The notes: generated by a model from the sequence alone, not told the origin. Shown: positions 30,774 through 54,148, counted from the stretch's first letter. The stretch: DNA of 64,000 nucleotides from a virus (IMGVR_UViG_2713896899_000007:7041-71040); one strand, 5' to 3'. Numbers and translations: made by a program.

Positions 30774-31085
30774 TCAGGCTATTGCCATCACTGATGCTCT
30801 CTGAATTTCTTGTTGGGCCACGCGGTTAACTTCCATCAAAGCCAGTTCGAGCTGATGTTCCGGCCACATTCTTTGAAATGCCACCCAGCCTTTTCCACGC
30901 TGGCGACGAACATTCATTACATAACGAGTAAAGGTGTTTTTATCGAAAGACACCGCTGTTTCACGGAACAGACGAATAGAGGTTCCATTGGCAACGATGT
31001 CCAGCAAAGTTAATTGAGCAACTAGCGCAGGCTTCTCTTTTCGCTTCTGGTCTTTGTCCAGACCAAGAACCAATGATTTTTTCAT
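30774..31085 (-). CDS. hypothetical protein
   Basis: ATG 31085 has a GGAG RBS. About 103 aa. Conserved promoter at 31095-31131. Confidence 0.55.
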   Translation of the reverse strand: MKKSLVLGLDKDQKRKEKPALVAQLTLLDIVANGTSIRLFRETAVSFDKNTFTRYVMNVRRQRGKGWVAFQRMWPEHQLELALMEVNRVAQQEIQRASVMAIA

Positions 31086-31094
31086 CACAACTCC

Positions 31095-31131
31095 GTAAAC
31101 AACTTGTTTTCTCAATGGCGTAAATAATACC
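31095..31131 (-). promoter_or_regulatory. conserved early promoter/leader element
   Basis: Minus strand reads GGTATTATTTACGCCATTGAGAAAACAAGTTGTTTAC. Confidence 0.55.
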
Positions 31132-31238
31132 AGTAAGAAAACGGCTACAAAGCATAATGATCAGGTGCATGATCGATATGCAGGTTCCTCCCTGCGGCTA
31201 TAGAGAAATTAAGCCAGCATTGCTGGCTTTGGTTGAGG

Positions 31239-31568
31239 TTACGCGAATACTTCAAGAAACTCCTGAACGTCCCAATGCTGGACAAGGTGAAGATAGACCT
31301 TAGAAATCACGTCATTCTCGCTATCGCATGTGAAGTAGTACTTCTGGCTGCGGTTGTATGTGTCCACACAAAATTCGCTCATATCCATAAAGTCAGCATC
31401 TTCTCCCATGTCGCAAATCATCAAAGCAGGTGCGTCATCACGAGTCATCAGCTCAAGCACCCACCGCGAATTGATCAGAGTGGAAGACCAACCTTCCAGC
31501 TCACAGAACTGGTCAAACTCTTTTTGAGTCAATTTCTTAATTTGGTTGATGTCGATATGTGCAAACAT
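31239..31568 (-). CDS. hypothetical acidic protein
   Basis: ATG 31568 has a TAAGGA RBS. ATG 31589 lies inside the promoter motif. Confidence 0.55.
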   Translation of the reverse strand: MFAHIDINQIKKLTQKEFDQFCELEGWSSTLINSRWVLELMTRDDAPALMICDMGEDADFMDMSEFCVDTYNRSQKYYFTCDSENDVISKVYLHLVQHWDVQEFLEVFA

Positions 31569-31578
31569 AAAGCAATCC

Positions 31579-31614
31579 TTAAACAACATGTTTTCTTATT
31601 GGTGTTATTATCGC
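31579..31614 (-). promoter_or_regulatory. conserved early promoter/leader element
   Basis: Minus strand reads GCGATAATAACACCAATAAGAAAACATGTTGTTTAA. Confidence 0.55.
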
Positions 31615-31928
31615 AATAACGCACAGGCGAAAAAGGATTTTATTCCGGTGAATGTGGTTTTGGCAGTGAGTTTTCAGGTTCAGTACCGAGTACACTTTTT
31701 ACATTATTCTGATTTAGTGGCCGAAGATGGCTGGTGGGCAGAATAATCCTCTCCCCGAAAACCTACTGAAATCGATTGTGACCCGCTGGCTGTCTGGCAC
31801 AATTACGCTGTAGCTGGGCATTCAGAGGGAATCCAGCGGTAAGTTCGCCTGCACGTGAGCGCCTCTCTTCTTACCGCACATTACAGGTGGGTAGCCGCAA
31901 CTCTCCCTCACGCTATACCGGTACGCCA

Positions 31929-32060
31929 CCGTTCCTGAACCGGCATCGAGCCTTTTCCCGAAATCCACACAGGCAACTCTACCGTTTCCCTGAAAATCCC
32001 CAGCCGTTCCCCGAAGGCAACCCAGCCGTTTCTGTAGCGGGATGCAGCCTTTCCCTGTAT
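31929..32060 (+). repeat. iteron cluster B, six copies phased at 22 bp
   Basis: Copy starts at 31929, 31951, 31982, 32004, 32026 and 32048. Consensus is cAGCCGTTTCCCtGAAAA. Confidence 0.75.
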
Positions 32061-32119
32061 GGACCGAAGGCTGACCGTAGGGGTGTTACGGGGGATAAAA
32101 TCAGGAGTTGAATAAATAC

Positions 32120-32990
32120 GAAAAAGGAGGCGACACCCCTACTTCCCTCTCCACTTATACATACCAGGCTTCTTCGCTATACATGTTGTGTTTTCTTCGT
32201 GTTTTATCTGTCTCAACCTCTCTATAGGCGTTAATGCTCACTCCTACCAGAACGTTCTATACGGCGACTATTTCTGTTGGTGGATTAGGTGTGTTGTTTT
32301 CTCTGTCGGTGTATGTGGTTTCGTTCGTTTTGCGGTGGTTCTTCTATGGGGTGTTCTCGTCGTTTTGGTGATTGTTCTTCTCCGTATATGGAGTAATGGC
32401 AGGTGGGCGATTGCTTTCGTTATTGTGTTTGAGTTGTTTGTCTGGAGTGTGTGAAAGGCTTTTGTAGTTATTCGTGTATTGGGTAATGGCGTTTCCCGTG
32501 ATTGTTATGTTTCGTGTCTTTTGGGATTGAGAGAAACCTTGCGGTTACAGGCTTCGTTGGGGTTTCAGTGATTCTGGTGTTTCTTCGCTGTTTGGGGAAT
32601 GGCGTGTCGTGGGTATCGCGCGTGTGAATGTTTTCGGATTGCCTGTGAAAGTTAGGTTGGTTATCCGGTAGCCTGGGAAGAAGAGGTGGGTCTTTTCGGT
32701 AGCCTGCCATAAAGAGGTTGGTTGTTTTTGGGAATGGCATGTGTGTTATTTAGTTGTTTTGTTATGCCTGAAAATAAGTTGTTTATATGGTTGTGTAACG
32801 CAACGGGAGCGATTTTGAGCGTGTGTTTTTGTTGGTAGTGTGTTGAGTCGTCTGTGGTGAAAATTGGACGCTGTGGAGCTGTCTGCTGCGTAGGATTACG
32901 GGTATAAGAAGTGATGTGTGAAAACGTCAATTTTTTAGACCAAATCGGGAGAAAGCGTTGATGTTTCGTTGATCTGTTATTTAGTTGTTT
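32120..32990 (-). ncRNA. candidate long C+A-rich untranslated transcript (hypothetical)
   Basis: A family promoter at 32974-33006 points into a stretch with no credible ORF. The plus strand is 72-85% G+T in the three 60-nt lines I counted. The ends are not defined. Confidence 0.25.
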
Positions 32991-33006
32991 TCTTATTGGT
33001 ATAAAC
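32974..33006 (-). promoter_or_regulatory. conserved early promoter/leader element with no downstream ORF
   Basis: Minus strand reads GTTTATACCAATAAGAAAACAACTAAATAACAG. A partial second copy lies at 32745-32765. Confidence 0.5.
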
Positions 33007-33136
33007 AACTGTAACCTATTGATATTTAAGGATGTGATTGCAGGCATGGAAGGGGAGTAGTGGCGATCAACGGATTCTTATAGAAAAGAATCAAATTGTG
33101 ACCGCCATTATCAACGGTTTGAATATGTTTGCAGAT

Positions 33137-33436
33137 TTACCAGTTCCAGCACTCAAGCCCTTCAACGACCGGCGCACCACAATCAAAATGTACAGAGTCA
33201 AAGCCTACATCAAGTACTTTCTGAATGTTAGCAATCGCGCCTTCGGATATACCATATCGACGCAAGTCGTCTTTCCAGACATCATCCTGTAACCCGGCGT
33301 GGACAATACAACCGCCATCAATTTGTGAAACCCAATCCAGCTCATTGCTTGCGATCATGAATCGGCGAGCATCTTCCTCTGATGTATGAGATGAACTGAT
33401 CAATGCCACCTGGTAGGCTTGGGTAATGTTCAACAT
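33137..33436 (-). CDS. DUF5983-like small protein (recollection of plasmid/prophage family)
   Basis: The ALISSSHTSEED...VHFDCGAPVVEGLECWNW pattern (ISTSH...HFD....L.G...W end) fits the family as I recall it. ATG 33436 has a GGAG RBS. Confidence 0.55.
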   Translation of the reverse strand: MLNITQAYQVALISSSHTSEEDARRFMIASNELDWVSQIDGGCIVHAGLQDDVWKDDLRRYGISEGAIANIQKVLDVGFDSVHFDCGAPVVEGLECWNW

Positions 33437-33447
33437 TTCAACCACTC

Positions 33448-33517
33448 CAAAACAAGTTGTTTTCTTATGTGGCTTATTATCTCTAACAACAAAAGGCAGA
33501 AAACAAATTGTTTTAGG
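33448..33517 (-). promoter_or_regulatory. early promoter with two AAAACAAnTTGTTTT palindromes flanking GATAAT
   Basis: Minus strand reads CCTAAAACAATTTGTTTTCTGCC...GAGATAATAAGCCACATAAGAAAACAACTTGTTTTGG. Confidence 0.6.
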
Positions 33518-33636
33518 TACTGTGTAAATCAGAAGGGATTGTGTCTATATGAAAATGCCCGGCGTGTTGCCGGGCATTGCGAAGAGAGGTTGTTTAATTA
33601 CTTAACCTGGTGGCCAGGTTTAGCACCGGCATCCGG
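33496..33636 (-). repeat. diverged copy of metG 3' end (12 codons + stop) + terminator + phage palindrome
   Basis: Aligns without gaps to 34364-34504 with 18 mismatches. The remnant encodes [12 protein letters not shown]. Confidence 0.9.
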
Positions 33637-34315
33637 CTGCAGGATGGGAGGTTACGTTCGCGCTATGTTGATATTCTGATTGACGCCATTTGTGCCAAAT
33701 CATCTCCTTATAGGATTCATATTGCGTTCGGTACTCTGGCTTCAAGTCAGATATGCCTTTATTCACTACCGCTCGTACGTTTACTAATAATTCGTGCTCA
33801 ATGCCTTTACTCTCTAAATATTCTACAACACCAGCATCGGGGCCAATTGCCCTGCCGTTAAAGACCATTTCCAGCATAAGCTCTGTTTCAGCAAAATAGA
33901 TAGGTGAGGAACCAGGTGCACACAGCTTAATAGCAGTAAGATTGTCCAACAGGTCGGCCAATTTAATCATTCGCGTCTGCATATCCAACGTCTTTTGCAA
34001 TTCGCGAACATTAATAATGAATCTCGCAAGACTATCGCCGTCGTCTGGTTTGGCAACGTTTGCCAGCGCCAGTACCATCTCAGCTACACGATTCCCGAAA
34101 TACTCGCGTACCATTTCGATAGTGATATGGGTATCTTCAATAACACCATGTAATAATGCAGCAGCCTGCATTTCGACAGTGCCTCCGTGCCAAGCAACAA
34201 TCTCACGCACAGAAACTGGGTGTGTAACGTAGTCTTCCCCCGTATATCTACGCTTCTTACCTACACCACCATACACTCCAACGGCAAACATATGAGCTTT
34301 ATCAACAATCGACAT
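33620..34315 (-). CDS. HD-domain (SpoT/Mesh1-like alarmone hydrolase family) protein, HD motif changed to HG
   Basis: GEDYVTHPVSVREIV...AALLHGVIEDT. Paralog of 42687..43328. ATG 34315 has a GGAG RBS. The C-terminal tail runs into the metG remnant. Confidence 0.75.
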   Translation of the reverse strand: MSIVDKAHMFAVGVYGGVGKKRRYTGEDYVTHPVSVREIVAWHGGTVEMQAAALLHGVIEDTHITIEMVREYFGNRVAEMVLALANVAKPDDGDSLARFIINVRELQKTLDMQTRMIKLADLLDNLTAIKLCAPGSSPIYFAETELMLEMVFNGRAIGPDAGVVEYLESKGIEHELLVNVRAVVNKGISDLKPEYRTQYESYKEMIWHKWRQSEYQHSANVTSHPAAGCRC

Positions 34316-34363
34316 AATTTGCTCCATTATTTTGTTAATACTGTTACTCTAACTGATAATAGA

Positions 34364-34504
34364 ACGCAGAAAACAAATTGTTTTAGGGGCTGAGTAAATC
34401 AGAAGGGATTGCGTCTATATGAAAATGCCCAGCAATACGCTGGGCATTGTGAAGAATGGTTGTTTAGTTACTTAACTTGGTGGCCTGGTTTAGCACCAGC
34501 ATCC
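34364..34504 (-). repeat. phage palindrome + metG terminator + metG 3' end (partner of 33496-33636)
   Basis: See the alignment for the partner repeat. The terminator stem is aatgcccagc/gctgggcatt (34422-34446). Confidence 0.9.
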
Positions 34505-36501
34505 GGGCTTAACAGGAAGATATCTTTCCCGCCGGGGCCAGCAGCCATCACCATGCCTTCGGAGATACCGAAGCGCATTTTACGCGGAGCCAGGTTAGCC
34601 ACCATAATTGTGTGACGACCAATCAGTGCCTGTGGGTCTGGATAAGCAGAACGGATGCCTGAGAAGACATTACGCTTTTCACCACCGAGATCCAGTGTCA
34701 GGCGCAACAGTTTGTCAGAACCTTCAACAAACTCCGCGTTTTCAATCAGCGCCACACGCAGGTCAACTTTGGCGAAGTCGTCAAAGGTGATGGTTTCCTG
34801 AATCGGGTCGTCAGCCAGTGGGCCAGTAACTGGCGCGGCAGTAGCTTTCACTTCTTCTTTGGATGCTTCCACCAGTGCTTCCACCTGTTTCATATCGATA
34901 CGGTTATACAGTGCCTTGAACGGATTCACTTTATGGCCCAGCAGCGGTTGCTGGATACCATCCCAGGTCAGTTCTGTATTCAGGAATGCTTCTGCACGTT
35001 CAGTCAGTTTCGGCAGTACCGGTTTCAGATACGTCATCAGCACGCGGAACAGGTTAATGCCCATAGAGCAAATCGCCTGCAGATCTGCATCGCGACCTTC
35101 CTGCTTCGCCACCACCCACGGAGCCTGTTCATCGACATAGCGGTTAGCCAGGTCAGCCAATGCCATGATTTCACGGATAGCTTTACCAAATTCGCGGCTT
35201 TCCCATGCTTCGCCAATCACTTCAGCGGCATCAGTAAAGGTTTTGTACAGTTGCGGGTCAGCCAGTTCGCTTGCCAGCACGCCGTCAAAACGCTTGTTGA
35301 TAAAGCCTGCATTACGGGAGGCCAGGTTAACCACTTTGTTAACAATATCGGCATTCACTCGCTGAACGAAATCCTCCAGGTTGAGATCGATATCATCAAT
35401 GCGCGAAGAGAGTTTCGCAGTGTAGTAGTAACGCAGGCTGTCAGCGTCAAAATGATTCAGCCAGGTGCTGGCTTTAATAAAGGTGCCGCGAGACTTGGAC
35501 ATCTTCGCACCGTTCACCGTCACATAGCCATGAACAAACAGGTTGGTCGGCTTGCGGAAGTTGCTGCCTTCCAGCATGGCAGGCCAGAACAGACTGTGGA
35601 AGTAAACGATATCTTTACCGATGAAGTGGTACAGCTCGGCGGTGGAGTCTTTCTTCCAGTATTCATCGAAGCTGGTGGTATCGCCGCGCTTGTCGCACAG
35701 ATTCTTGAAGGAACCCATGTAGCCAATCGGTGCGTCCAGCCAGACGTAGAAATATTTACCCGGCGCGTTCGGAATTTCAAAACCGAAGTAAGGTGCGTCG
35801 CGGGAGATATCCCACTGTTGCAGACCAGATTCAAACCACTCCTGCATTTTGTTTGCCACCTGCTCCTGCAACGCACCGCTGCGGGTCCATGCCTGCAACA
35901 TTTCGCTGAAAGAGGGCAGATCAAAGAAGAAGTGTTCAGAATCACGCATTACCGGGGTAGCACCAGAAACCACCGATTTCGGCTCGATCAGTTCAGTCGG
36001 GCTGTAGGTCGCGCCACAAACTTCACAGTTATCGCCGTATTGATCTGGCGCTTTACATTTCGGGCAGGTGCCTTTCACAAAACGATCCGGCAGGAACATG
36101 CCTTTTTCCGGGTCGTACAACTGAGAGATAGTGCGGTTTTTAATAAAACCGTTCTCTTTCAGGCGAGTATAAATAAGCTCAGACAGCTGGCGGTTCTCTT
36201 CGCTGTGCGTCGAGTGATAGTTGTCATAGCTGATGTTAAAGCCTGCGAAATCAGTCTGGTGTTCCTGACTCATTTCGCCAATCATCTGCTCCGGTGTGAT
36301 ACCAAGTTGCTGTGCTTTCAGCATGATCGGCGTACCGTGGGCATCGTCGGCACAGATGAAATTAACCTCGTGGCCGCGCATTCGCTGGTAACGAACCCAG
36401 ACATCAGCCTGGATGTGCTCCAGCATATGGCCGAGGTGGATTGAGCCGTTAGCGTACGGCAGCGCGCACGTCACCAGAATTTTCTTCGCGACTTGGGTCA
36501 T
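34468..36501 (-). CDS. metG: methionine--tRNA ligase
   Basis: 677 codons from ATG 36501 ([25 protein letters not shown]...KMSKS...). Near-identical to E. coli MetG as I recall it. The 43-codon upstream extension in the track is spurious. Confidence 0.97.
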
Positions 36502-36658
36502 AGTAGGCATTACTTCTTTGTAGTGAAAAGGGGCTTGATAGTAACAAAATGGCCTTATGTCTGCCATGTGATAACAGCATTTCTCATAAATGATTAAATG
36601 TCGTAGCTGGAGTACACTACAAGGCGACAATTGCGCAAATTAAAATAAAGGAGACGGG

Positions 36659-37759
36659 ATGAGCGAGTCCAAATCGCCGGATGCCCTGAGAGCAATGGTA
36701 GCCGGTACGCTGGCTAATTTTCAGCACCCAACCCTGAAACACAACCTGACTACGCTTAAAGCGTTACACCATGTTGCGTTGATGGATGACACACTGCATG
36801 TCGAACTAATCATGCCTTTCGTGTGGAATAAGCCTTTTGAAGACCTGAAAGAGCAATGTAGTGGTGATCTGCTCCGTATCACTGGCGCAAAGGCTATTGA
36901 CTGGAAGCTGTCGTACAACATTGCCACGCTTAAGCGCGTCAAAAACCAACCAGGCATTAATGGTGTTAAGAATATTATCGCCGTAAGCTCAGGCAAGGGC
37001 GGTGTAGGCAAATCGTCCACAGCAGTAAACTTGGCACTGGCGTTGGCTGCTGAAGGTGCGAAAGTTGGTATTTTGGATGCCGATATCTACGGGCCATCAA
37101 TACCAACCATGCTGGGCGCGGAAAACCAACGTCCAACCTCACCGGACGGTACTCACATGGCACCTATCATGTCTCATGGCCTGGCAACCAATTCAATTGG
37201 CTATCTGGTCACCGACGACAATGCAATGGTGTGGCGTGGACCGATGGCCAGCAAGGCGCTGATGCAGATGTTGCAGGAAACACTGTGGCCTGATCTGGAC
37301 TATCTCGTTCTCGATATGCCGCCGGGCACTGGTGATATTCAGTTGACGCTGGCGCAGAACATTCCTGTAACTGGTGCGGTTGTGGTAACTACGCCGCAAG
37401 ACATCGCGCTGATCGATGCGAAGAAAGGCATTGTGATGTTCGAAAAAGTCGAAGTGCCAGTACTGGGTATCGTTGAAAACATGAGTGTGCATATTTGCAG
37501 TAACTGCGGTCATCACGAGCCAATTTTTGGCACCGGTGGCGCACAGAAACTGGCCGAGAAATACAACACGCAGTTGTTAGGCCAAATGCCACTTCATATC
37601 TCTCTTCGTGAAGATCTGGATAACGGAACACCAACCGTTATTAGTCGTCCAGATAGTGAATTTACGGCTATTTATCGTGACCTCGCAGATCGCGTTGCTG
37701 CCCAAATGTATTGGCAAGGTGAAGTAATACCTGGCGAAATCGCATTCCGCGCAGTGTGA
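36659..37759 (+). CDS. apbC: Fe-S cluster carrier ATPase Mrp/ApbC
   Basis: AVSSGKGGVGKSS P-loop and a CSNCGHH motif. Divergent from metG as in the E. coli chromosome. Confidence 0.95.
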   Translation: MSESKSPDALRAMVAGTLANFQHPTLKHNLTTLKALHHVALMDDTLHVELIMPFVWNKPFEDLKEQCSGDLLRITGAKAIDWKLSYNIATLKRVKNQPGINGVKNIIAVSSGKGGVGKSSTAVNLALALAAEGAKVGILDADIYGPSIPTMLGAENQRPTSPDGTHMAPIMSHGLATNSIGYLVTDDNAMVWRGPMASKALMQMLQETLWPDLDYLVLDMPPGTGDIQLTLAQNIPVTGAVVVTTPQDIALIDAKKGIVMFEKVEVPVLGIVENMSVHICSNCGHHEPIFGTGGAQKLAEKYNTQLLGQMPLHISLREDLDNGTPTVISRPDSEFTAIYRDLADRVAAQMYWQGEVIPGEIAFRAV

Positions 37760-37762
37760 TAA

Positions 37763-37787
37763 AAAGGTGGTGCATTGCACCACCTAA
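37763..37787. terminator. bidirectional hairpin between mrp and humD-like gene
   Basis: aggtggtgca t tgcaccacct. Confidence 0.6.
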
Positions 37788-37796
37788 ACAGTTCTC

Positions 37797-38186
37797 CTAC
37801 ATCACAGGACAATCATCAAACTCGCCACTTCTTGCGTCGTTGATAATGTGAGTGATCACACCAAACACGGCATTGCTGCCCGTGCATCCATCGTCATCCT
37901 TTGGCAATGCTTCCTTCTTACCAGTTCTTAAATCCTCCAGATGCTGACGTGGATACTTCCGGTATCTTTTTACGCGATATTCCCCATCCAGAGCGCATAC
38001 AAGCAGAGAACCATCAACCGGGGTAAGTGAGGAATCGACCACCAGCAATGCGCCCTGCAATATTCCCTCACGATGATGGCTGTCAGCCGCTCTCATGAAG
38101 TAGGTCGCTGAAGGATGTCTAATTATCTGCTGATCAAGAGAAATACGGCTCTCAGCATAATCCGCCGCAGGAGAAGGGAAGCCCAT
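37797..38186 (-). CDS. humD: UmuD'-like S24 peptidase-fold protein lacking the cleavable N-terminus (phage P1 HumD-like)
   Basis: Starts MGFPSPAADY, which aligns to the residues just after the UmuD Cys24-Gly25 cleavage site. The Ser (ADSH) and Lys (VKRY) positions are retained. A LexA box lies upstream. Confidence 0.8.
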   Translation of the reverse strand: MGFPSPAADYAESRISLDQQIIRHPSATYFMRAADSHHREGILQGALLVVDSSLTPVDGSLLVCALDGEYRVKRYRKYPRQHLEDLRTGKKEALPKDDDGCTGSNAVFGVITHIINDARSGEFDDCPVM

Positions 38187-38202
38187 AGCGTTTTGCCCTC
38201 AA

Positions 38203-38222
38203 TACTGTTCATTTATACAGTA
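38203..38222 (-). promoter_or_regulatory. LexA (SOS) box TACTGTATAAATGAACAGTA
   Basis: Perfect CTG-N10-CAG with TA-rich spacer, 17 nt upstream of the humD-like ATG and overlapping -10-like TATACT/TATAAA. Confidence 0.8.
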
Positions 38223-38358
38223 TACATGAAAGAAGCTCACTCAGTGCAACTGATCGGTACATAGCACCAGACAAAGGAACATTATTTTCTCGAACAAGAA
38301 AAGGTAGAAAACAAATTGTTTAAGGCCACAGCTAGTGGCCTTAATGGAGAAGGGATGC

Positions 38359-38883
38359 TTATTGGCTATGGCTAAAAATCAAATGAGACACTTCATTTGG
38401 TTGTAGCTCGTCAAGATCCGGGGCCACAAAACCTTTTCCGAAAGACTTCACAAGTGATTCACCTGCCGCATCATTGTCACCTATTACGCGAAAGTCATAC
38501 GGCAGCATTGCCAGTTGACGACGTAATCCTGCTGAGAAAGTCGAACCTAACAGCGCCCACGAATTTCCGCCCGCGTTGTGCACTGCTGCACTTTTAAAAA
38601 TCGACTCAGTTATCCATATCGGTCCATCTTTTAAAGGAAGATAGGTTCCCCATAGTAGCTGTCTGCCGTGCGCACGTGTGAAATACCGGGCCATCTTCGG
38701 ATTGCTATGCTGCTTAGGAGCGCCTGGTCTGTATGTCTGATACCCGGCCAACATCCCATCAAACCTGTATAGAGGGAATGTAACAACTCCTTCGCTTTCA
38801 TCGATCCACTGTCTATATGGATGCACATCATGGCGGTAGTTACGAGTTAGCAAATGAGCTTCCAGCTTTCCAAATTTAGTCAT
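38359..38883 (-). CDS. Toprim-domain protein
   Basis: The ITESIFKS...VIGDNDAAGE pattern (E...DxD). ATG 38883 has a GAGGGA RBS. Confidence 0.6.
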   Translation of the reverse strand: MTKFGKLEAHLLTRNYRHDVHPYRQWIDESEGVVTFPLYRFDGMLAGYQTYRPGAPKQHSNPKMARYFTRAHGRQLLWGTYLPLKDGPIWITESIFKSAAVHNAGGNSWALLGSTFSAGLRRQLAMLPYDFRVIGDNDAAGESLVKSFGKGFVAPDLDELQPNEVSHLIFSHSQ

Positions 38884-38896
38884 AACTTCGCATCCC

Positions 38897-39751
38897 TCAT
38901 AACACTTCCCATTTATCACCATATTTCTCCATAGCTCTTAGCCAATAAACATGGCCACTAGGCATAGTGATGTGAGGCTCGCCAAACTCTTCTCCATGCA
39001 CATCAAAGATGTCCCCAACAGAGAATTGGGGGATTTCTGTGCCGTTTTCACCTATATGCGTAATTCGTATACGTTTCGGTTGAGATTCGCCCCCTTTGAG
39101 CGAGTTGTTCACGGCTCTTGCAATCTTCTCCCGCAATTGCTGCGTTCCGTGATACGTAACCGCAATATCCCTCAACTCGTTCACCAGTTCTCGAATCTGG
39201 TGATCTTTAAGCTCATTATTTGAGTGATTGGCAACAACTCTGGTTAATTCACCCTTGTCTTTTGCTCTTACGTATGCAGCTCTTGTGCATTCGACCCATG
39301 TATTACCGCCTACATTAACTTCGTAGATTAGGCTGGACTTATCTGTCAATTCGGAACAAATACGGGCCGTGGTCTGGCAACTAGAGCATTCGCAGTTATC
39401 GCGGAAACCGTGGTCTACTGGCTTCGGTTTCACATCATCAACTTTTTCTACCCTATTGGAATTTAAATACTTCGAAGCCTTGCTATGCCAATCGCTGGTT
39501 TTAGGATCTTGTCCATCCATCAAACGCCAGGCTTCAGCGATTAACTCATAACTAGTGACTGTAGCTTCCTGAGCATCACCAATAAGTCGTGTAATCTCTC
39601 TTTCAAGCCGACCGCCTAACTCCGTTTTAGTGCAATGTTCTGACCAATCGCCAGCCTCAAGAAGCGCGAGAATGTTTAAAATATCGTCCAATAGAACGGT
39701 AGTATTTTCGACTTCCTTCTGAAGCTCTCCGGCTGCTGATTTATGCGTCAT
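38897..39751 (-). CDS. hypothetical protein
   Basis: 284 aa ORF in the early operon. Confidence 0.6.
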   Translation of the reverse strand: MTHKSAAGELQKEVENTTVLLDDILNILALLEAGDWSEHCTKTELGGRLEREITRLIGDAQEATVTSYELIAEAWRLMDGQDPKTSDWHSKASKYLNSNRVEKVDDVKPKPVDHGFRDNCECSSCQTTARICSELTDKSSLIYEVNVGGNTWVECTRAAYVRAKDKGELTRVVANHSNNELKDHQIRELVNELRDIAVTYHGTQQLREKIARAVNNSLKGGESQPKRIRITHIGENGTEIPQFSVGDIFDVHGEEFGEPHITMPSGHVYWLRAMEKYGDKWEVL

Positions 39752-40002
39752 TCATCATCCTCATCACAGGTTGAGAGTAGTGGGTTAGTCATTCGTCCTA
39801 CTTGAGTGGCGTAGCCACGCCGACAGAGATTGCGCAGCACACTGTATATTTCGAACATCTCGGTTCGTTCATCGCCAACATCAAGCTCAGATGCCATAGC
39901 GTGGCATTCAGCCGCGAGAGCCGATATTTTCTGAAATAACTCTGCTTTATTCACTGTTCGACTCCTGCGGCGGTTCTGGTAGTGGCATCCAGTGTGTGAC
40001 AT
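39748..40002 (-). CDS. hypothetical protein
   Basis: 84 aa, ATGA-type overlap. Confidence 0.45.
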   Translation of the reverse strand: MSHTGCHYQNRRRSRTVNKAELFQKISALAAECHAMASELDVGDERTEMFEIYSVLRNLCRRGYATQVGRMTNPLLSTCDEDDE

Positions 40003-40246
40003 TGCTAATCAGACCATATTCATTAGTTTGAGGATGATTGCCGTTATCGTCTCCGTATTTAAGACTCTCCATAAAGCCATAATGCCTATCACCATTAACG
40101 CTCACAAAGCCGTAATAAGCAGGTATAACGCCGATCTCACACGTAACCAGCAAAGGAAAACTAGTTCTCCAATTTAGCTCGCCGATTACAGGCATCTGCT
40201 CACTACAGCTTATCCAACCATCAGGAGTAACCGGATAGTTGCGCAT
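39947..40246 (-). CDS. DUF551-like protein
   Basis: The C-terminal ...VTHWMPLPEPP motif is typical of DUF551 as I recall it. Confidence 0.6.
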   Translation of the reverse strand: MRNYPVTPDGWISCSEQMPVIGELNWRTSFPLLVTCEIGVIPAYYGFVSVNGDRHYGFMESLKYGDDNGNHPQTNEYGLISNVTHWMPLPEPPQESNSE

Positions 40247-40545
40247 TGCGACCTTAAATGCCTCATTTTCAGATTATTGAACTGACGCCCGTTTAGAGGG
40301 CCATGTTCTGTCAACATGTTGTGTAATTTCCATGCCGCGTCGTTAACTTCGTTGGATGATCTGGGAGGCAACTTGCAAGTTTGGCTTACAGGTTCTGCAC
40401 TATCAGCTTCGCGCCGCTTCTGTAGCTCTGCTGCCATCGCTCTCACGACTTCAACTGGTGCCCTTGCAGCAAACTCTATGTTGGTGATCAGCTCATTAAG
40501 ATATTGCTCGCCTGGATACTGTTTCTTATCGGTTATAGTAGTCAT
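40210..40545 (-). CDS. hypothetical protein
   Basis: ATG 40545 directly follows the upstream stop. Confidence 0.5.
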   Translation of the reverse strand: MTTITDKKQYPGEQYLNELITNIEFAARAPVEVVRAMAAELQKRREADSAEPVSQTCKLPPRSSNEVNDAAWKLHNMLTEHGPLNGRQFNNLKMRHLRSQCATIRLLLMVG

Positions 40546-40546
40546 A

Positions 40547-40969
40547 TCACTCTCCTTTTCCCTGAAGCATAGCGGCACGGCAGGCGTTCCATCCATCTGC
40601 GTAACAATCTCTGTGCGTCTTGAAATTTGTCACCGCTCTTGGTACATCCTTTACATCTATTTCATCAGGCACAATCGGCGCTGGAGGGGCTGCGTAGACC
40701 TCAATAACTCCATTATCAATAGGCCACTCCCCATCCTTGATGTAGTCACTTGTGCCGTCAACTTGCTGTTCTGCAATGTGGAATGCACCTATTGGTTTTG
40801 CTTCCAGCGAGGCCAGTGCAATTCGTGCCAGTTTTAGATCTCGTTCAACCATCTCAATAACAACTTTGCAGTCCGCACCTTCTTTACTAACACGTCCTTT
40901 CAAGTCTTCCAGATAACTAACGCTTTCGCGTGCATGGGAGATTAACTGTTCTTTGGTTAAGGTGGTCAT
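40547..40969 (-). CDS. ead/Ea22-like protein
   Basis: Coiled-coil N-terminus and a C-terminal ...CYADGWNACRAAMLQ motif common in lambdoid Ea22-region proteins (from memory). Confidence 0.5.
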   Translation of the reverse strand: MTTLTKEQLISHARESVSYLEDLKGRVSKEGADCKVVIEMVERDLKLARIALASLEAKPIGAFHIAEQQVDGTSDYIKDGEWPIDNGVIEVYAAPPAPIVPDEIDVKDVPRAVTNFKTHRDCYADGWNACRAAMLQGKGE

Positions 40970-41154
40970 TAGGCAGCTCTCTCAACAACAAGCAATTCGT
41001 CGTAGTCATAATCAGTTTCGGAACCATCCGTACCGAACAGAGTCACTTTGTCATCTTCCATCCAAAAAGATTTAACCGCACATTGTTGACCTTTAGATGT
41101 TATGAGCACATCACCAGGGATTACGTCTTCAGCGCGAACTTCTAGTGTTCTCAT
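40969..41154 (-). CDS. hypothetical protein
   Basis: 61 aa, coupled starts and stops. Confidence 0.45.
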   Translation of the reverse strand: MRTLEVRAEDVIPGDVLITSKGQQCAVKSFWMEDDKVTLFGTDGSETDYDYDELLVVERAA

Positions 41155-41696
41155 CGTGCTGACCCCTCTTTGGTTAAAATGCCTGCTGCAATGCTGTTTA
41201 TGATGCTGTCAGTGCATGGAGTAGAAAGCTGGGCATCTCCAGCAATTTTCATGACTTCGACATCCGCATATCGAATACCGAGGTGTATCAGACCTGCTAT
41301 ACCTGACTTAAGTCGAACATTTTCCATAAACAGATCCTTTTCCCGCTGTTTAACGGTCTCCAGCTCAACACGCAGTTTCTCAAGCGTTAGGGCCATCTCT
41401 ACGTTCTCCTGCTCAAGACGTCGGATGTGTTGCTGTCTTTTATCCATTTCGTCCAGCAGTGCAATCACATCGGGATCACTATCATCAACTACTGTTACGC
41501 GTGATTTTTCATAATGTTCGTCTGCAAAAGTACGCCCTATCTTAAAATATCCGTCATCACCCTCACCGGAACAGGCATAAACAACATGTGCTCCAGATAT
41601 GCGCTGTATTGACATTTCCTCGCCACAAACAGAGCATTTAGGCGCTGGTTTTGGTGAATAACGTTCACGTAACGTCAGGTAGTAAATCTCGCTCAC
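41151..41696 (-). CDS. ead/Ea22-like protein (zinc ribbon + coiled coil)
   Basis: CSVCGEEM...YAC followed by a long heptad region. Confidence 0.55.
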   Translation of the reverse strand: MSEIYYLTLRERYSPKPAPKCSVCGEEMSIQRISGAHVVYACSGEGDDGYFKIGRTFADEHYEKSRVTVVDDSDPDVIALLDEMDKRQQHIRRLEQENVEMALTLEKLRVELETVKQREKDLFMENVRLKSGIAGLIHLGIRYADVEVMKIAGDAQLSTPCTDSIINSIAAGILTKEGSAR

Positions 41697-42148
41697 TGTT
41701 TATTTCCTTTGCGAAGATCAGCGGCGAAGGCTACTGCGTGATCATGATGTTCAAGTGTGTATGCACACTCAGCAAACATCTCCACGCCCTGCGCACGTAC
41801 TTCAGCCAGAAAAGCATCGGTGGCTGGAGTCTCCGTTAATTCGCTAACCCAATTATCTCCGTGTTCCTCGGCACACATCGCATCGAATGCTCGCTCAGAT
41901 TCTTTCAGGGCTGCATTCTCCGCCGCTAATGCGTCTCTCTGCGCCCGCAACTTCTCAATTTCGGCAGCCATGTAGTAACCAACCATAGCGAAAGTGGCGA
42001 AAGGGTAGTCCGAATCATCAGGAGATACGGAGGCCATTAGCAGACCATCGTGCATGTTCTGGCTTCCATCAGTGATAGATACCGCATAAGAATCGCTGGT
42101 TTCCCGCTTATACAATACGACGACCGGGTTCTTGATTTTCTCTCTCAT
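41693..42148 (-). CDS. ead/Ea22-like protein
   Basis: ETPATDAFLAEVRAQGVEMFA motif. Confidence 0.55.
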   Translation of the reverse strand: MREKIKNPVVVLYKRETSDSYAVSITDGSQNMHDGLLMASVSPDDSDYPFATFAMVGYYMAAEIEKLRAQRDALAAENAALKESERAFDAMCAEEHGDNWVSELTETPATDAFLAEVRAQGVEMFAECAYTLEHHDHAVAFAADLRKGNKQ

Positions 42149-42690
42149 TACGATGCCTCTAACTTGTCTAACTCTTTCAGCCCTTCACGTACCGCGTTCA
42201 CAATGCGTTCCAGATACTGGTATTTCGGGTTTGGTACCGTTGGCCAGTCGGCATACCACGGATCATCACCAAAGAGATTCAGTAGTTTGTTACCGACGCC
42301 GAAACAGCAGCAGCTTTCTTTTACGTCATCGGCGTTTTCCGCCTCGTCCCACATTTCGCGAGCCAGTACGGCGTCTATTTCTCTCTCTCTTCGTAACTTT
42401 ATGATTTCTGACTTCACGAAAAGCAGATTTGCATCGTTGTCATCGTCGACCGTGCTTCGCAGTTGAGGGTCGAAATAGCCGATTAGATACTCGTTGCTGA
42501 CCCGCTTAATGAACGTCTGCACATCATCACCGCCCATAGCAAACCAAGCCGCAGTCCACGCTTTTCCGTAGCAGGTGATGGTGATTCTTCCCTTACCAGG
42601 TTCGTAGTTTTCAATCATCACTCGAACCGGATCGAGGCGTTCCAGATCCGTCAGCACAAAGGAAAGAACATCTATTTTTTCGATCTTCAT
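42148..42690 (-). CDS. hypothetical protein
   Basis: ATG 42690 overlaps the HD gene stop (ATGA). GGGAGG RBS. Confidence 0.55.
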   Translation of the reverse strand: MKIEKIDVLSFVLTDLERLDPVRVMIENYEPGKGRITITCYGKAWTAAWFAMGGDDVQTFIKRVSNEYLIGYFDPQLRSTVDDDNDANLLFVKSEIIKLRREREIDAVLAREMWDEAENADDVKESCCCFGVGNKLLNLFGDDPWYADWPTVPNPKYQYLERIVNAVREGLKELDKLEAS

Positions 42691-43328
42691 GCAGCCTCCC
42701 ACGCGCTCCAGATCAGCGATTTGTGTTTTTCATAACGTTTGATGTGTACCGGTTTCAGAAGCGCAATACCTTCAGTGACTTTCGCCATTGCGCTTAATAA
42801 CAACGGGTGTTCTATACCTATCCTCTCCATGTACTCGACAACATCAGCGTTGGCACCAATCTCCTTCCCGTTAAAAAGTACGTCCAGCATCAGCTCTTTC
42901 TCTGCAAGGTAGATAGCTGAAAACTCAGGATCGCGACTCACGATAGAAGAGGTATTGTCGAGCAGGTCAGCCAGCTTGATCATGCGCGTCTGCATGTCGA
43001 GATTTTGCTCCAGCTCCCGGACATTGATGATGAAACGCTGTATTCGATTGCCGTCTTCTGGCCTTGCGATGTTGGTCAGAGCCTGAACCATTTCAGCTAC
43101 GCGCTCACCGAAGTGATCACGAACCATCTCTATGGTTACATTGGTGTCTTCGACCACATCATGCAGAAGCGCCGCGATTTGCATCTCCACGGTTCCGTCA
43201 TGCAATGCAACAATCTCTCGGACAGCAACCGGGTGGTTGATGTAGTCTTCGCCGGTATATTTTCTTTTCTGACCAACGCCACCATGAGCGCCAGCGGCGA
43301 ACATATGTGCTTCGGAAATACTAGACAT
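42687..43328 (-). CDS. HD-domain (SpoT/Mesh1-like small alarmone hydrolase family) protein
   Basis: GEDYINHPVAVREIV...AALLHDVVEDT...RMIKLADLLDN. The HD dyad is intact. Confidence 0.8.
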   Translation of the reverse strand: MSSISEAHMFAAGAHGGVGQKRKYTGEDYINHPVAVREIVALHDGTVEMQIAALLHDVVEDTNVTIEMVRDHFGERVAEMVQALTNIARPEDGNRIQRFIINVRELEQNLDMQTRMIKLADLLDNTSSIVSRDPEFSAIYLAEKELMLDVLFNGKEIGANADVVEYMERIGIEHPLLLSAMAKVTEGIALLKPVHIKRYEKHKSLIWSAWEAA

Positions 43329-43447
43329 TCTTAACTCCGTTGTTTTCTAGTTGTGGTTATTTTCACAAATAAGAAAAGGTAGAAAACAATTTATTTAAGG
43401 CCACAACTTATGGCCTTTATTTATTCATGCAGAAGAATTTGTAGCGT

Positions 43448-43828
43448 CTAATTGCCGGATAAAATGGGGTGAGGTGCTTGCCAGTAGGCTCCACCGTTCC
43501 ATGTGAACCCCATGCGAATAAGAGTGTTTATTGCGGCTTTGGTAGACTCCGATTCGACACTGGCTTTTCGAAACTCTTGAACCTCTTTCGCCAACTTGTA
43601 TGTAATTGTGCAGGGTACGATTGCAGCCCAGCCTTTCTCATGACTGTTAATGACCATCTGGATGTGACCATCCAGAATAGGTTGATCAGGCATGTTATTG
43701 AAAACGTCTGCCTGTTTTTGAATGTGAAGAAAAAGCCTTGCCAGCTCCATTTGCTCACTACGAGACAAGGGATTATCAAGAGGGCTTTTTGCAAAAGCGG
43801 CTATACGCTGTGCGTCAATGCCAAACAT
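43448..43828 (-). CDS. hypothetical protein
   Basis: 126 aa ORF. Confidence 0.5.
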   Translation of the reverse strand: MFGIDAQRIAAFAKSPLDNPLSRSEQMELARLFLHIQKQADVFNNMPDQPILDGHIQMVINSHEKGWAAIVPCTITYKLAKEVQEFRKASVESESTKAAINTLIRMGFTWNGGAYWQAPHPILSGN

Positions 43829-44532
43829 CAGCGCACCTCACCATCTTTATGGCTGGAGTTAACTTCCGCCATTAAATGTCTGACGTAATCGACAAGAGAG
43901 CCACCTGGTGGAATCTGGCATTCCTCAACTAACTGGAAGTAGATATCCGCTGCATTACGTGTATTGCTACCCGCGCATATTCTTTCTTCCCGAAGTGCAT
44001 GAAGCTCGTTGACCAAACGGTCACACTCTCCGTTACGCTGATCCACAACGGCCTCAAGCTCTGCGACGCGTTCACCTGGCGTCTTACCTTCTTTGCGTTG
44101 GATGGTAACGACGAAATCGCCAATTGCAGGGACGTTGTAATCCAGCTCAAGGTAGTTTTTGGCACCGCTGCGGACGAACTCACCCGCGAACATGGTGGCG
44201 AACATCGCAGAGGCCACTTCGCCGTTGAAAAGTGACTCCAGATCTAACGGAGTCCCGGCAGCAATAGCCTCTTTTGCTGTATCCATTGCATCCATGAACC
44301 GATCAAACTCACTAGCGCGCTTTTCCAGGTCTTTCCATTGCTCGCTCCAACGTTTGGCAACGAAGTCTATGAATGTTTTCGCGGATTCATCAAAATTCCC
44401 CTCAAACTTAACGATGCCTTTATCAATAATGATCTGGCCTACCGCATCCTCTGCATAACCTTTCAATGTAAACTTGAAAGGAAAATCAGAATGGCCTGTG
44501 ACGTTAAAATGCTCTAACTGGAGGTCGTTCAT
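43828..44532 (-). CDS. hypothetical protein
   Basis: 234 aa ORF. Confidence 0.55.
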   Translation of the reverse strand: MNDLQLEHFNVTGHSDFPFKFTLKGYAEDAVGQIIIDKGIVKFEGNFDESAKTFIDFVAKRWSEQWKDLEKRASEFDRFMDAMDTAKEAIAAGTPLDLESLFNGEVASAMFATMFAGEFVRSGAKNYLELDYNVPAIGDFVVTIQRKEGKTPGERVAELEAVVDQRNGECDRLVNELHALREERICAGSNTRNAADIYFQLVEECQIPPGGSLVDYVRHLMAEVNSSHKDGEVR

Positions 44533-53027: not shown

Positions 53028-53672
53028 CTAATGAACGGTTACTCGGCCACAGAACCGGTTTTCTATCTTTTCTACAGCGTTATCTAGCATTCTCATCACT
53101 GATCTGGCTCTTGCTTCAACCGTGCGATATCGGTTGGAAACGACGAAGGTTTGCAGATCTCCCCTTTGCGGATGCAGGTGAATTTTTGTCAGTTCCCCGC
53201 ACATCAACGCATCAATACGAGCGACATACAGACGGTCTAATGATGCTCGTTGTGATCGCAAGTAATCTCGCTCTGAGAGAGCGACTCCCGGGCGTAAGCC
53301 AGCAATGGCGTTAAAGTTTGAAATAGCAGTTTTGTGGCAAAACTTTTCGATATCGAGGGCTAACTCAATACACCGATCTTCATTTGTATGGCCGACCAAA
53401 TCCAACGTGTAGGCCATAACATCAGCAGGTGTGCGATCGATAACAAAGCCTTCAACACCACGCGTAAGTAGCTCTATATGCTTTGCTATTTCCATTTGAA
53501 TCTGAAGCCGCTCATATAGAGGCATAGACTCACCTACTCGAACACCGAGGCGGCTCATCAAACTTCCGACACCAGCATCCACGTAAGGGATTCCGTAATG
53601 TTTGTCGATATATTTAGCCAGGGTTGTTTTCCCACTGCCCTGAGCACCAGTGATCCCAATCCGGTAATCCAT
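53028..53672 (-). CDS. P-loop nucleotide kinase-like ATPase
   Basis: GAQGSGKTT Walker A at the N-terminus. Lies in the nucleotide-metabolism operon. Confidence 0.6.
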   Translation of the reverse strand: MDYRIGITGAQGSGKTTLAKYIDKHYGIPYVDAGVGSLMSRLGVRVGESMPLYERLQIQMEIAKHIELLTRGVEGFVIDRTPADVMAYTLDLVGHTNEDRCIELALDIEKFCHKTAISNFNAIAGLRPGVALSERDYLRSQRASLDRLYVARIDALMCGELTKIHLHPQRGDLQTFVVSNRYRTVEARARSVMRMLDNAVEKIENRFCGRVTVH

Positions 53673-54148
53673 TACGACCTTCTGTATACGATCTGCGAAA
53701 AGCCAGGCTCTTCCTCGCTGGCTCGTTGGGTATAAGCTGTTTCAACAGGCACAAAGCCTAAGTTACGCATCATGCTTGCCGGGAAGAATGCATCGGCGTT
53801 TGGTACATCAACGCCGATGTGGGAGAGCCAAATCTCTTCAACATGCGGCATGAATAGCGAGTAAATTTGTTCCCCGCCAATCACCCACACAGGCTCTGGT
53901 AATCGCAACACATCATCCACACCAGCAGGGTAGAATCCATTTGGTACAAAGCCATGAGAGCGCGTCAAAACGAGGTTATGACGCTCTGGAAGAGGGCGTT
54001 TGAGACTTTCCATCGTTTTACGCCCCATAACGACAGTGGCGTTTTTGGTGAGTCTCTTAAATAGCTTCAGATCGGTAGAACAACGCCAGGGCAGTTCGTT
54101 CGCTATGCCGATCTCATAGTTACGGCCAACAGCAGCTATCATCTTCAT
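53672..54148 (-). CDS. folA: dihydrofolate reductase
   Basis: MIAAV...LPW...VVMGRKT...VIGGEQIY pattern. 158 aa. Confidence 0.9.
   Translation of the reverse strand: MKMIAAVGRNYEIGIANELPWRCSTDLKLFKRLTKNATVVMGRKTMESLKRPLPERHNLVLTRSHGFVPNGFYPAGVDDVLRLPEPVWVIGGEQIYSLFMPHVEEIWLSHIGVDVPNADAFFPASMMRNLGFVPVETAYTQRASEEEPGFSQIVYRRS

Follow-up and report, generated by a model that had tools for sequence, protein, structure and literature searches.

The closest described relatives of the locus reported here are small alarmone hydrolases (SAHs). Among them, PaSpo of Salmonella phage SSU5, studied alongside PbcSpo of phage PVP-SE1, neutralises CapRel, PhRel, PhRel2, FaRel and FaRel2, i.e., all five toxic small alarmone synthetases (toxSASs) tested (PMC7229694). 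PaSpo also strips the tRNA 3'-pyrophosphate installed by FaRel2 (PMC11245113) and is routinely co-expressed to permit the purification of CapRel-SJ46 (PMC9712102). ATfaRel, PbcSpo of PVP-SE1 and MESH1 likewise neutralise toxSASs (PMC7229694). The Asp of the His-Asp (HD) dyad is one of four invariant Mn2+ ligands that make up the 2H2D motif of these enzymes, and a binuclear model places it also among the groups around a proposed second metal site (PMC11554896). The active-site mutant D54A of ATfaRel, an SAH antitoxin, no longer degraded ppGpp and no longer neutralised the toxin (PMC7229694); judged from its position, D54 is probably the dyad Asp. Loss of catalysis has been described in the hydrolase domain of RelA, which is catalytically inactive (PMC11554896). 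Here, we examine a 64,000-nt stretch of viral DNA (IMGVR_UViG_2713896899_000007:7041-71040, hereafter the window), which is sequence of an SSU5/pHCM2-type phage-plasmid and carries two genes of this family, designated HD1 and HD2. We show that HD2 is the ortholog of PaSpo and that HD1 is a degenerate paralog without the dyad Asp, which we lean towards regarding as a catalytically dead relic under relaxed constraint.

Between HD2 and PaSpo of SSU5 we found no substantive difference, and HD2 represents the allele of this gene in an E. coli member of the group. HD2 shares 87% identity with SSU5_099 (YP_006906731.1, 'metal-dependent phosphohydrolase') over 213/213 residues. The two genes occupy equivalent positions in the same type of element, with the same gene order and shared flanks that include an upstream DUF4942 methylase and an overlapping downstream gene. 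All four metal ligands (H32, H56, D57 and D121) and the ED diad (E60 and D61) are kept in HD2, the dyad region reading LLHDVVEDT. The downstream gene encodes a 180-aa protein for which our local Pfam copy returned no match. Because the same 4-nt overlap is kept in SSU5 (SSU5_099/100), the arrangement suggests that PaSpo is translationally coupled to this protein of unknown function.

By orthology, HD2 would be an active alarmone and tRNA-3'-pyrophosphate hydrolase. As a Mn2+-dependent 3'-pyrophosphohydrolase, it would degrade (p)ppGpp and (p)ppApp, strip the 3'-pyrophosphate that toxSASs add to tRNA, and thereby protect the element from toxSAS-based growth arrest or defence. The initial annotation of this stretch had noted that stand-alone phage hydrolases are proposed to counter toxSASs; in co-expression, the ortholog of HD2 neutralises five of these (PMC7229694). 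The published evidence that we found consists of co-expression in E. coli, and the literature searched yielded no anti-defence role of PaSpo or HD2 in real phage infection. HD2 is thus an already known, characterised member of the PaSpo family. In PLSDB, 186 plasmids from Klebsiella, Enterobacter, Escherichia, Salmonella and Citrobacter carry homologs, among them pHCM2 of S. Typhi CT18, and the HD2 allele itself is found in 36-41 plasmids. HD2 confirms that the E. coli branch of SSU5 phage-plasmids carries PaSpo, which is already a laboratory tool against toxSAS toxins.

HD1 is a clear paralog of HD2, as the initial annotation had proposed for the two minus-strand open reading frames (ORFs): the proteins align without gaps over 210 residues with 63% identity (E = 1e-100). 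Both score above the gathering threshold for Pfam HD_4 PF13328 (HD2, E = 1.3e-18; HD1, E = 2e-15) and match the N-terminal hydrolase part of TIGR00691 spoT_relA (HD2, 6e-25; HD1, 4e-20), as well as PHROG 990 'metal-dependent phosphohydrolase'. Their sequence matches to solved structures are SpoT, Rel, MESH1, Lmo0812 and small alarmone hydrolases, and neither has an unrelated HD family as its best match. The two proteins (231 aa for HD1 and 213 aa for HD2) are stand-alone, with no further Pfam or NCBIfam domain found in either. For HD1, we prefer ATG 34315 (MSIVDK) to ATG 34327 as the start codon, since a GGAG lies six bases ahead of it and the resulting N-terminus fits the homologs.

The AlphaFold2 model of HD1 has a mean predicted local distance difference test (pLDDT) score of 86.7 and a predicted TM-score (pTM) of 0.84. 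At E <= 0.001, its Foldseek matches in the PDB (top 40 or more) are all MESH1, SAH, RelH, the Bacteroides (p)ppApp hydrolase, Lmo0812 and Rel/SpoT hydrolase domains, the SAHs among them being those of Leptospira, RelH and the P. aeruginosa SAH. HD1 is therefore predicted to keep the Mesh1/SAH fold. Together, sequence, predicted fold and orthology support the placement of the pair in the SpoT/Mesh1-type stand-alone alarmone hydrolase family, where the initial annotation had put it. The single-domain RSH (RelA/SpoT homolog) hydrolase fold is common to the other SAHs compared, namely ATfaRel of Cellulomonas marina, PbcSpo of PVP-SE1, the P. aeruginosa SAH (6YVC), C. glutamicum RelH (7QOD) and metazoan MESH1 (3NR1/5VXA). 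These SAHs give the best structure matches for the HD1 model, and their 2H2D and ED motifs are present in HD2. In contrast, identity to the solved SAH structures is only 20-24%, proteins of the SSU5 group continue at the C-terminus for an additional ~55 residues, a region to which most relatives do not align, and HD1 is without the catalytic Asp whose likely ATfaRel equivalent is D54.

Relative to PaSpo of SSU5, HD1 is alike in fold and length class and shares 68% identity with SSU5_099. Given its different locus, HD1 is not orthologous to SSU5_099 but a paralog or xenolog of it. Its closest intact relative is a 215-aa protein, P0002, which is 74% identical and is encoded where PaSpo canonically lies, in another SSU5-like element. 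HD1 differs from PaSpo of SSU5 in that the dyad Asp (and, in one allele, the His too) is lost, four or five more conserved residues are changed and the stop codon is gone; moreover, HD1 lies after metG and has no coupled downstream gene. A partner like the 180-aa gene is absent at P0002 as well.

The loss at the metal site is the central observation. Where HD2 has LLHDVVEDT, HD1 reads LLHGVIEDT, with a GGT codon one base from GAT at the position that aligns to the dyad Asp of SpoT, Rel and Lmo0812; both readings are as the initial annotation gave them. Of the four 2H2D ligands (the His of the HP motif, the His-Asp dyad and the Asp of the KLAD motif), HD2 has all and HD1 does not. Gly occupies the dyad Asp position in 15/15 HD1 cluster members read, none of which reads HD, and in about half of the members, which represent one major allele of the two, the dyad His is also replaced, by Asn (NG, H56N). 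The ED diad (E60/D61) is present in both alleles. We compared these residues with the 150 best representatives (50% clusters) of an exhaustive HMMER search (19,478 hits, E <= 0.001) plus close relatives. In this set, no family representative departs from H56, D57 or E60 (156/156 for each residue).

The changes in HD1 extend beyond the metal site. HD1 breaks 6/25 columns that are >= 95% conserved among 145 distant relatives, while P0002, HD2, the SSU5 protein and six other intact proteins break 0-1 of those 25 columns. Both HD1 alleles share H15Y, D57G, T85A, R95S and D133A, to which the window allele adds F136S and the other allele H56N. Because metal ligands and further conserved residues are lost, we infer that HD1 is almost certainly no longer a pyrophosphohydrolase, judging from these residues. 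The suggestion in the initial annotation that this copy is probably inactive is strengthened by the invariance of the Asp in 156/156 relatives, its role as a 2H2D ligand and the D54A phenotype of ATfaRel. Overall, HD1 belongs to the SAH family by descent and fold and lacks the metal-ligand motif that defines it; it is a degenerate variant and not a functional SAH.

HD1 is confined to one plasmid lineage of E. coli. It occurs in 2/5,426 complete E. coli genomes, both times on SSU5-like plasmids, and its 90% cluster holds 17 protein variants, the major two of which appear in 100 and 123 indexed blocks of the collection. Its context is constant across 18 loci (apbC-metG-HD1-DUF5983), and HD2 is also present in 3/3 HD1-carrying elements that could be checked. 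Pattern searches of IMG/VR, JGI metagenomes and GTDB were run with both dyad codons left open. They returned only two further contigs: a 92,376-bp IMG/VR contig, which is that of cluster member P0027 (HG), and a JGI metagenome contig that reads CAT GGT; GTDB genomes gave no match. An HD-intact ancestor at the metG locus was not found in a 5.8-billion-protein search, the cluster listing, IMG/VR, JGI metagenomes, GTDB, PLSDB or the complete E. coli genomes. Rare HD1 variants carry P33L, in the HP motif, or T62P, beside the ED diad.

The structure of the locus points to the origin of HD1. The gene is bracketed by two copies of a 180-nt direct repeat (copies A and B, Table 1) that are 81% identical to each other. 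The HD1-free plasmid pMRY16-002_2 (L025) has one copy of this 180-nt module, most like the distal copy A; this empty site is as compatible with an ancestral state as with a deletion between the repeats. From the promoter-like motif onward, the sequence ahead of HD1 (in copy B) shows homology to that ahead of other PaSpo genes, and HD1 has therefore moved with its own 5' region. We infer that HD1 was gained by recombination from a diverged relative.

The initial annotation had noted an aberrant HD1 tail of roughly 20 aa. The tail is real; its length is 16 residues beyond the end of P0002. It exists because the stop codon was lost and the frame became fused to duplicated sequence: P0002 ends ...WRQSEY-TAA, HD1 has CAA at that codon, and the read-through passes ~9 codons of the former 3' untranslated region before it enters the duplicated metG 3' end. 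The two alleles are frameshifted relative to each other in this tail (...SHPAAGCRC versus ...SHQPDAGA), the latter being in frame with MetG ...SPDAGAK, and residues 224-230 are predicted to be disordered (pLDDT < 50). The tail is evidently unconstrained.

Table 1 Features of the two hydrolase loci and their surroundings in the window.
Feature	Position	Strand	Basis
HD1, 231-aa degenerate PaSpo paralog	33620..34315	-	ORF, HD_4, residue comparison, AlphaFold model
GGT codon (Gly57) at the HD-dyad Asp position of HD1	34145..34147	-	Sequence read; alignment with SpoT, Rel and Lmo0812, which have Asp here
16-codon C-terminal HD1 tail plus stop	33620..33670	-	TAA -> CAA; read-through
HD2, 213-aa small alarmone hydrolase, SSU5 PaSpo ortholog	42687..43328	-	ORF, HD_4 E = 1.3e-18, synteny with SSU5_099
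180-aa gene (Phage_phiTE_072, PF26211, per the collection's precomputed Pfam hits)	42148..42690	-	Start overlaps the HD2 stop by 4 nt
DUF5983 gene, invariable downstream neighbour of HD1	33137..33445	-	Pfam PF19419 E = 7.6e-11; context in 18 loci
Copy A of the 180-nt direct repeat	33457..33636	-	Last ~38 nt of the metG coding sequence, terminator hairpin, promoter-like motif
Copy B of the 180-nt direct repeat	34327..34506	-	Real metG 3' end, variant terminator, HD1 upstream region
Motif TAAAACAATTTGTTTTCT upstream of HD1, exact	34368..34385	-	Motif scan of the window
Motif TAAAACAATTTGTTTTCT upstream of HD2, 3 mismatches, just past a terminator hairpin	43381..43398	-	Motif scan of the window
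metG (methionine--tRNA ligase), plasmid-borne, directly upstream of HD1	34468..36501	-	p009_B annotation, ORF
apbC (mrp), plasmid-borne, divergent from metG	36659..37759	+	ORF, p009_B annotation

We then examined how HD1 has evolved since its alleles parted. Between the window (HG allele) and the plasmid of strain 2014C-3307 (NG allele), HD1 shows 15 differences in 213 aligned codons, with a nonsynonymous to synonymous (N:S) count of 6:9 and a ratio of the corresponding rates (omega) of ~0.18. In the same plasmid pair, N:S is 1:59 for metG, 0:11 for apbC, 0:8 for the S24 peptidase gene (humD), 0:2 for toprim, 0:2 for DUF5983 and 2:10 for HD2. HD1 thus departs from these six genes pooled (6:9 versus 3:92, Fisher P = 1.6e-4), with an N:S excess over its neighbouring genes of 20- to 40-fold. 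Another 18 loci collapse to 4 haplotypes, because exact-protein look-ups return only synonymous variants, and add little power to the dN/dS estimate. Gene conversion between HD1 and HD2 was considered as a cause of the low N:S and ruled out, since the 15 differences are scattered points and no tract matches HD2 or P0002.

Judged by three-taxon branch lengths, HD1 has accumulated amino-acid changes at about twice the level of P0002. The surplus falls entirely within the catalytic part (residues 1-155), where the branch lengths are 0.096 for HD1 and 0.043 for P0002. Since the split, each HD1 allele has gained at least one more change at a family-invariant residue.

Other SSU5-like plasmids carry PaSpo derivatives without the catalytic N-terminus (P0009, P0010 and P0013-P0015), among them a 139-aa truncation on 139 contigs and a fusion with an AAA-ATPase N-terminus. 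In further derivatives, the first ~65 residues of a homolog of the window gene at 43828-44532 are fused to PaSpo from residue 72 onward, the first 71 residues being deleted. Loss of PaSpo seems to be common in the family.

The initial annotation had left the choice between a decoy or binder and simple decay; the evidence now leans to relaxed constraint and decay, and a non-catalytic role keeps the lesser share. In the sequence of events that we consider somewhat better than an even bet, HD1 would be an extra PaSpo-family copy that came from a diverged SSU5-like element by recombination. It would have landed with its own promoter-like region between metG and the DUF5983 gene, an event that duplicated the 180-nt module (metG 3' end, terminator and motif). 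By the time the alleles split, HD1 would have exchanged Asp57 for Gly, changed at four more family-invariant residues and lost its stop codon; the loss of a second ligand, His56 to Asn, would have followed in one allele. HD1 would now be under strongly relaxed, though non-zero, constraint, a dispensable relic riding with its plasmid lineage. We favour this reading because of the rarity of the copy, its lost stop and unconstrained tail, the ongoing erosion of invariant residues, the N:S excess and the record of PaSpo loss in the family. Several observations weigh against a mere relic. The nonsynonymous share (6/15) is below the neutral expectation, a fraction of 0.70-0.77 depending on transition bias (P = 0.0025-0.014), and in the C-terminal 58 residues HD1 shows no acceleration (0.073 versus 0.066 for P0002). 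The ORF is unbroken in every full-length copy read, as are the Shine-Dalgarno sequence and the promoter-like motif; both main alleles are widely indexed; and HD1 and HD2 co-occur in all three elements that could be checked, as a model of an enzyme plus partner predicts. Conceivably, the HG allele, with its three remaining ligands, has residual or altered activity. The intact ORF is nonetheless unremarkable, because synonymous divergence since the inactivation amounts to only ~0.03 per lineage.

Much of this counter-evidence is what a maintained pseudoenzyme would leave, and we regard such a role as possible although unlikely. HD1 could sequester alarmones or pyrophosphorylated tRNA, divert, as a decoy, a host factor by which PaSpo is recognised or inhibited, bind a toxSAS, or temper HD2 as a regulatory partner during plasmid carriage; its placement right after the metG of the plasmid might reflect a tRNA-related role. 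Besides an omega below neutral after the inactivation, the constant company of HD2 and the retained expression signals, this possibility draws on the confident fold prediction, on the putative substrate-site residues, most of which are left (R22, Y29, H32, E60, D61, K118, D121 and N125), and on the restriction of the excess changes to the catalytic part, the subfamily-specific C-terminal region evolving at a normal rate. The catalytically inactive hydrolase domain of RelA shows, in addition, that dead RSH modules can persist (PMC11554896). However, the omega below 1 rests on 15 substitutions, and selection against misfolding of an expressed protein gives the same signal. Conserved sites continue to erode in both alleles (H56N and F136S) and in rare variants (P33L and T62P), T85A and R95S strike columns that are >= 95% conserved, the tail is unconstrained and frameshifted between the alleles, and the copy is limited to one minor plasmid lineage. 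Moreover, in the one SAH in which a hydrolysis-dead mutant was tested, neutralising activity was gone as well (PMC7229694). It is improbable that HD1 is still an enzyme, with an altered metal site or a shifted substrate (e.g., as a phosphatase or on another nucleotide), the HG dyad then marking specialisation and not loss. The HG allele does retain the ED diad and all metal ligands but one of the four, omega is below 1, and single residues can shift RSH specificity, as illustrated by Asp91 of Mesh1 and phosphatase activity (PMC11554896). Yet the dyad Asp is present in 156/156 relatives, a sample that offers no functional precedent for its absence, and the binuclear model puts this residue among the groups around the proposed second metal site as well as making it a ligand of M1 (PMC11554896). 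Five further conserved columns are changed, and the sister allele is also without His56, leaving two ligands; because this NG allele is about as widespread as HG, the metal site appears to no longer matter. Finally, a single nucleotide separates the Gly codon from GAT, so that HD1 might have been a normal second SAH misread through a sequencing or assembly error or a private mutation. The population data refute this: G57 is found in 15/15 cluster members read, in many independent assemblies (NCBI, ENA, Logan and JGI) and in two diverged alleles, as well as in the JGI metagenome contig recovered with the open-dyad pattern, the IMG/VR contig (P0027) being HG too.

The nearest precedent for a dead HD1 is the inactive hydrolase domain of RelA, both being RSH hydrolase modules that persist after catalysis is lost. 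The RelA module sits in a long multidomain RSH, whereas HD1 is a free-standing protein of 231 aa with HD_4 only, and the likeness is one of function and not of membership. The RelA module also serves structurally or in regulation and is, as far as is known, old and conserved throughout its lineage, in contrast to HD1, which is rare, of recent origin and under relaxed constraint. In our literature search for inactive SAHs, we came across no account of a dead SAH that is free-standing.

The surrounding element goes beyond what the initial annotation described, as do the standing of HD2 as an already characterised family member and the origin of the HD1 tail by stop loss and read-through into the duplicated metG 3' end. 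The whole window is phage-plasmid sequence of the SSU5/pHCM2 type, near-identical to the E. coli plasmid p009_B. A 5.9-kb stretch that includes HD1, metG and apbC matches p009_B of E. coli strain 9 (NZ_CP048306.1, 110,182 bp, circular) at 100% identity. The 10 kb to its right is ~96% identical to the Escherichia phages PhiR41_1, CMS-2020a and Cyrano, with Salmonella phage SSU5 at 87% over the shared part of those 10 kb. According to the p009_B annotation, the window holds virion genes (tail, tape measure, capsid, portal and terminase), plasmid partition genes (ParB) and a long leftward early or accessory block with a helicase, metG, apbC, an S24 (HumD-like) peptidase, toprim, Ea22-like genes, a DUF4942 protein, TerB, RNase H, Dam, an exonuclease, dihydrofolate reductase (DHFR), ThyA and NrdAB. 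On a first reading of the ORF map, two prophages flanking a chromosomal metG-mrp pair had been considered; the match to a 110-kb circular plasmid at 100% and the window-wide match to SSU5-like phages rule this out, and metG and apbC are cargo of the phage-plasmid, not host chromosome.

The window and the p009_B record differ by at least one 10-bp deletion. Near window position 40266, 10 bp of the record (AGAAGCAACC) are missing, and the window is hence not the same sequence as p009_B. This loss splits a 203-aa DUF551 gene into two overlapping ORFs (39947-40246 and 40210-40596).

The divergent arrangement of metG and apbC (34468-37759) is the same as on the chromosome. All complete E. coli genomes contain a match to the metG-apbC stretch, for the most part with a nucleotide identity of 80-90% (5,810 records), and the 5.9-kb stretch around it is at least 80% covered in 194 records, the top matches listed being plasmids of ~107-113 kb. 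A literature search for SSU5 plus metG found no paper mentioning metG as cargo. Beside thyA and nrdAB, at ~53672-54148, lies a phage-type DHFR that carries the RefSeq label of trimethoprim-resistant DfrA51; its coordinates were converted from the p009_B record with an offset of 44,000, which is valid to the right of the 10-bp deletion. In a Pfam scan (local copy) of the neighbouring proteins, DUF5983 was matched and the other four were not.

We also noticed a recurrent motif in the window. The partly palindromic TAAAACAATTTGTTTTCT has 15 matches with <= 3 mismatches, compared with 0.14 expected, at 33498-33515, 38306-38323, the two sites listed in Table 1 and 11 others. The copies examined are intergenic, lie just after terminator hairpins and precede early genes, including both HD genes, which makes TAAAACAATTTGTTTTCT a candidate promoter or operator of the early region of the element. 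A consensus scan for sigma-70 promoters and terminators found neither on the minus strand around HD1, where the hairpins seen by eye have T-runs too short for the scan rule.

At ~31563-33137, ~1.5 kb is without an annotated gene in the near-identical record. This region differs from its surroundings in skew, which is positive for GC and strongly negative for AT. Its short direct repeats comprise three copies of TGTTATTTAGTTGTTTTGTTAT and, at 32666-32727, a tandem pair of 31 nt. An Rfam scan of the whole window at gathering thresholds gave no match, and Tandem Repeats Finder reported no array in 31000-34600. The region could be an origin or a regulatory region.

HD1 represents a natural experiment, in which a stand-alone hydrolase without its full set of metal ligands persists as an intact and apparently expressible gene in two alleles. 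Either outcome would be modest in scope, given that the main gene is known and that the second copy is most likely the relic of one lineage; HD1 would become a tidy test case if a non-catalytic function were proved. Such a function, if true, would add a new layer to the contest between toxSASs and phages, and HD1 would then be, to our knowledge, the first free-standing pseudo-SAH. If HD1 is instead a relic, it would show the speed at which accessory counter-defence genes erode on plasmid prophages, in agreement with the truncated and fused PaSpo genes of sister plasmids.

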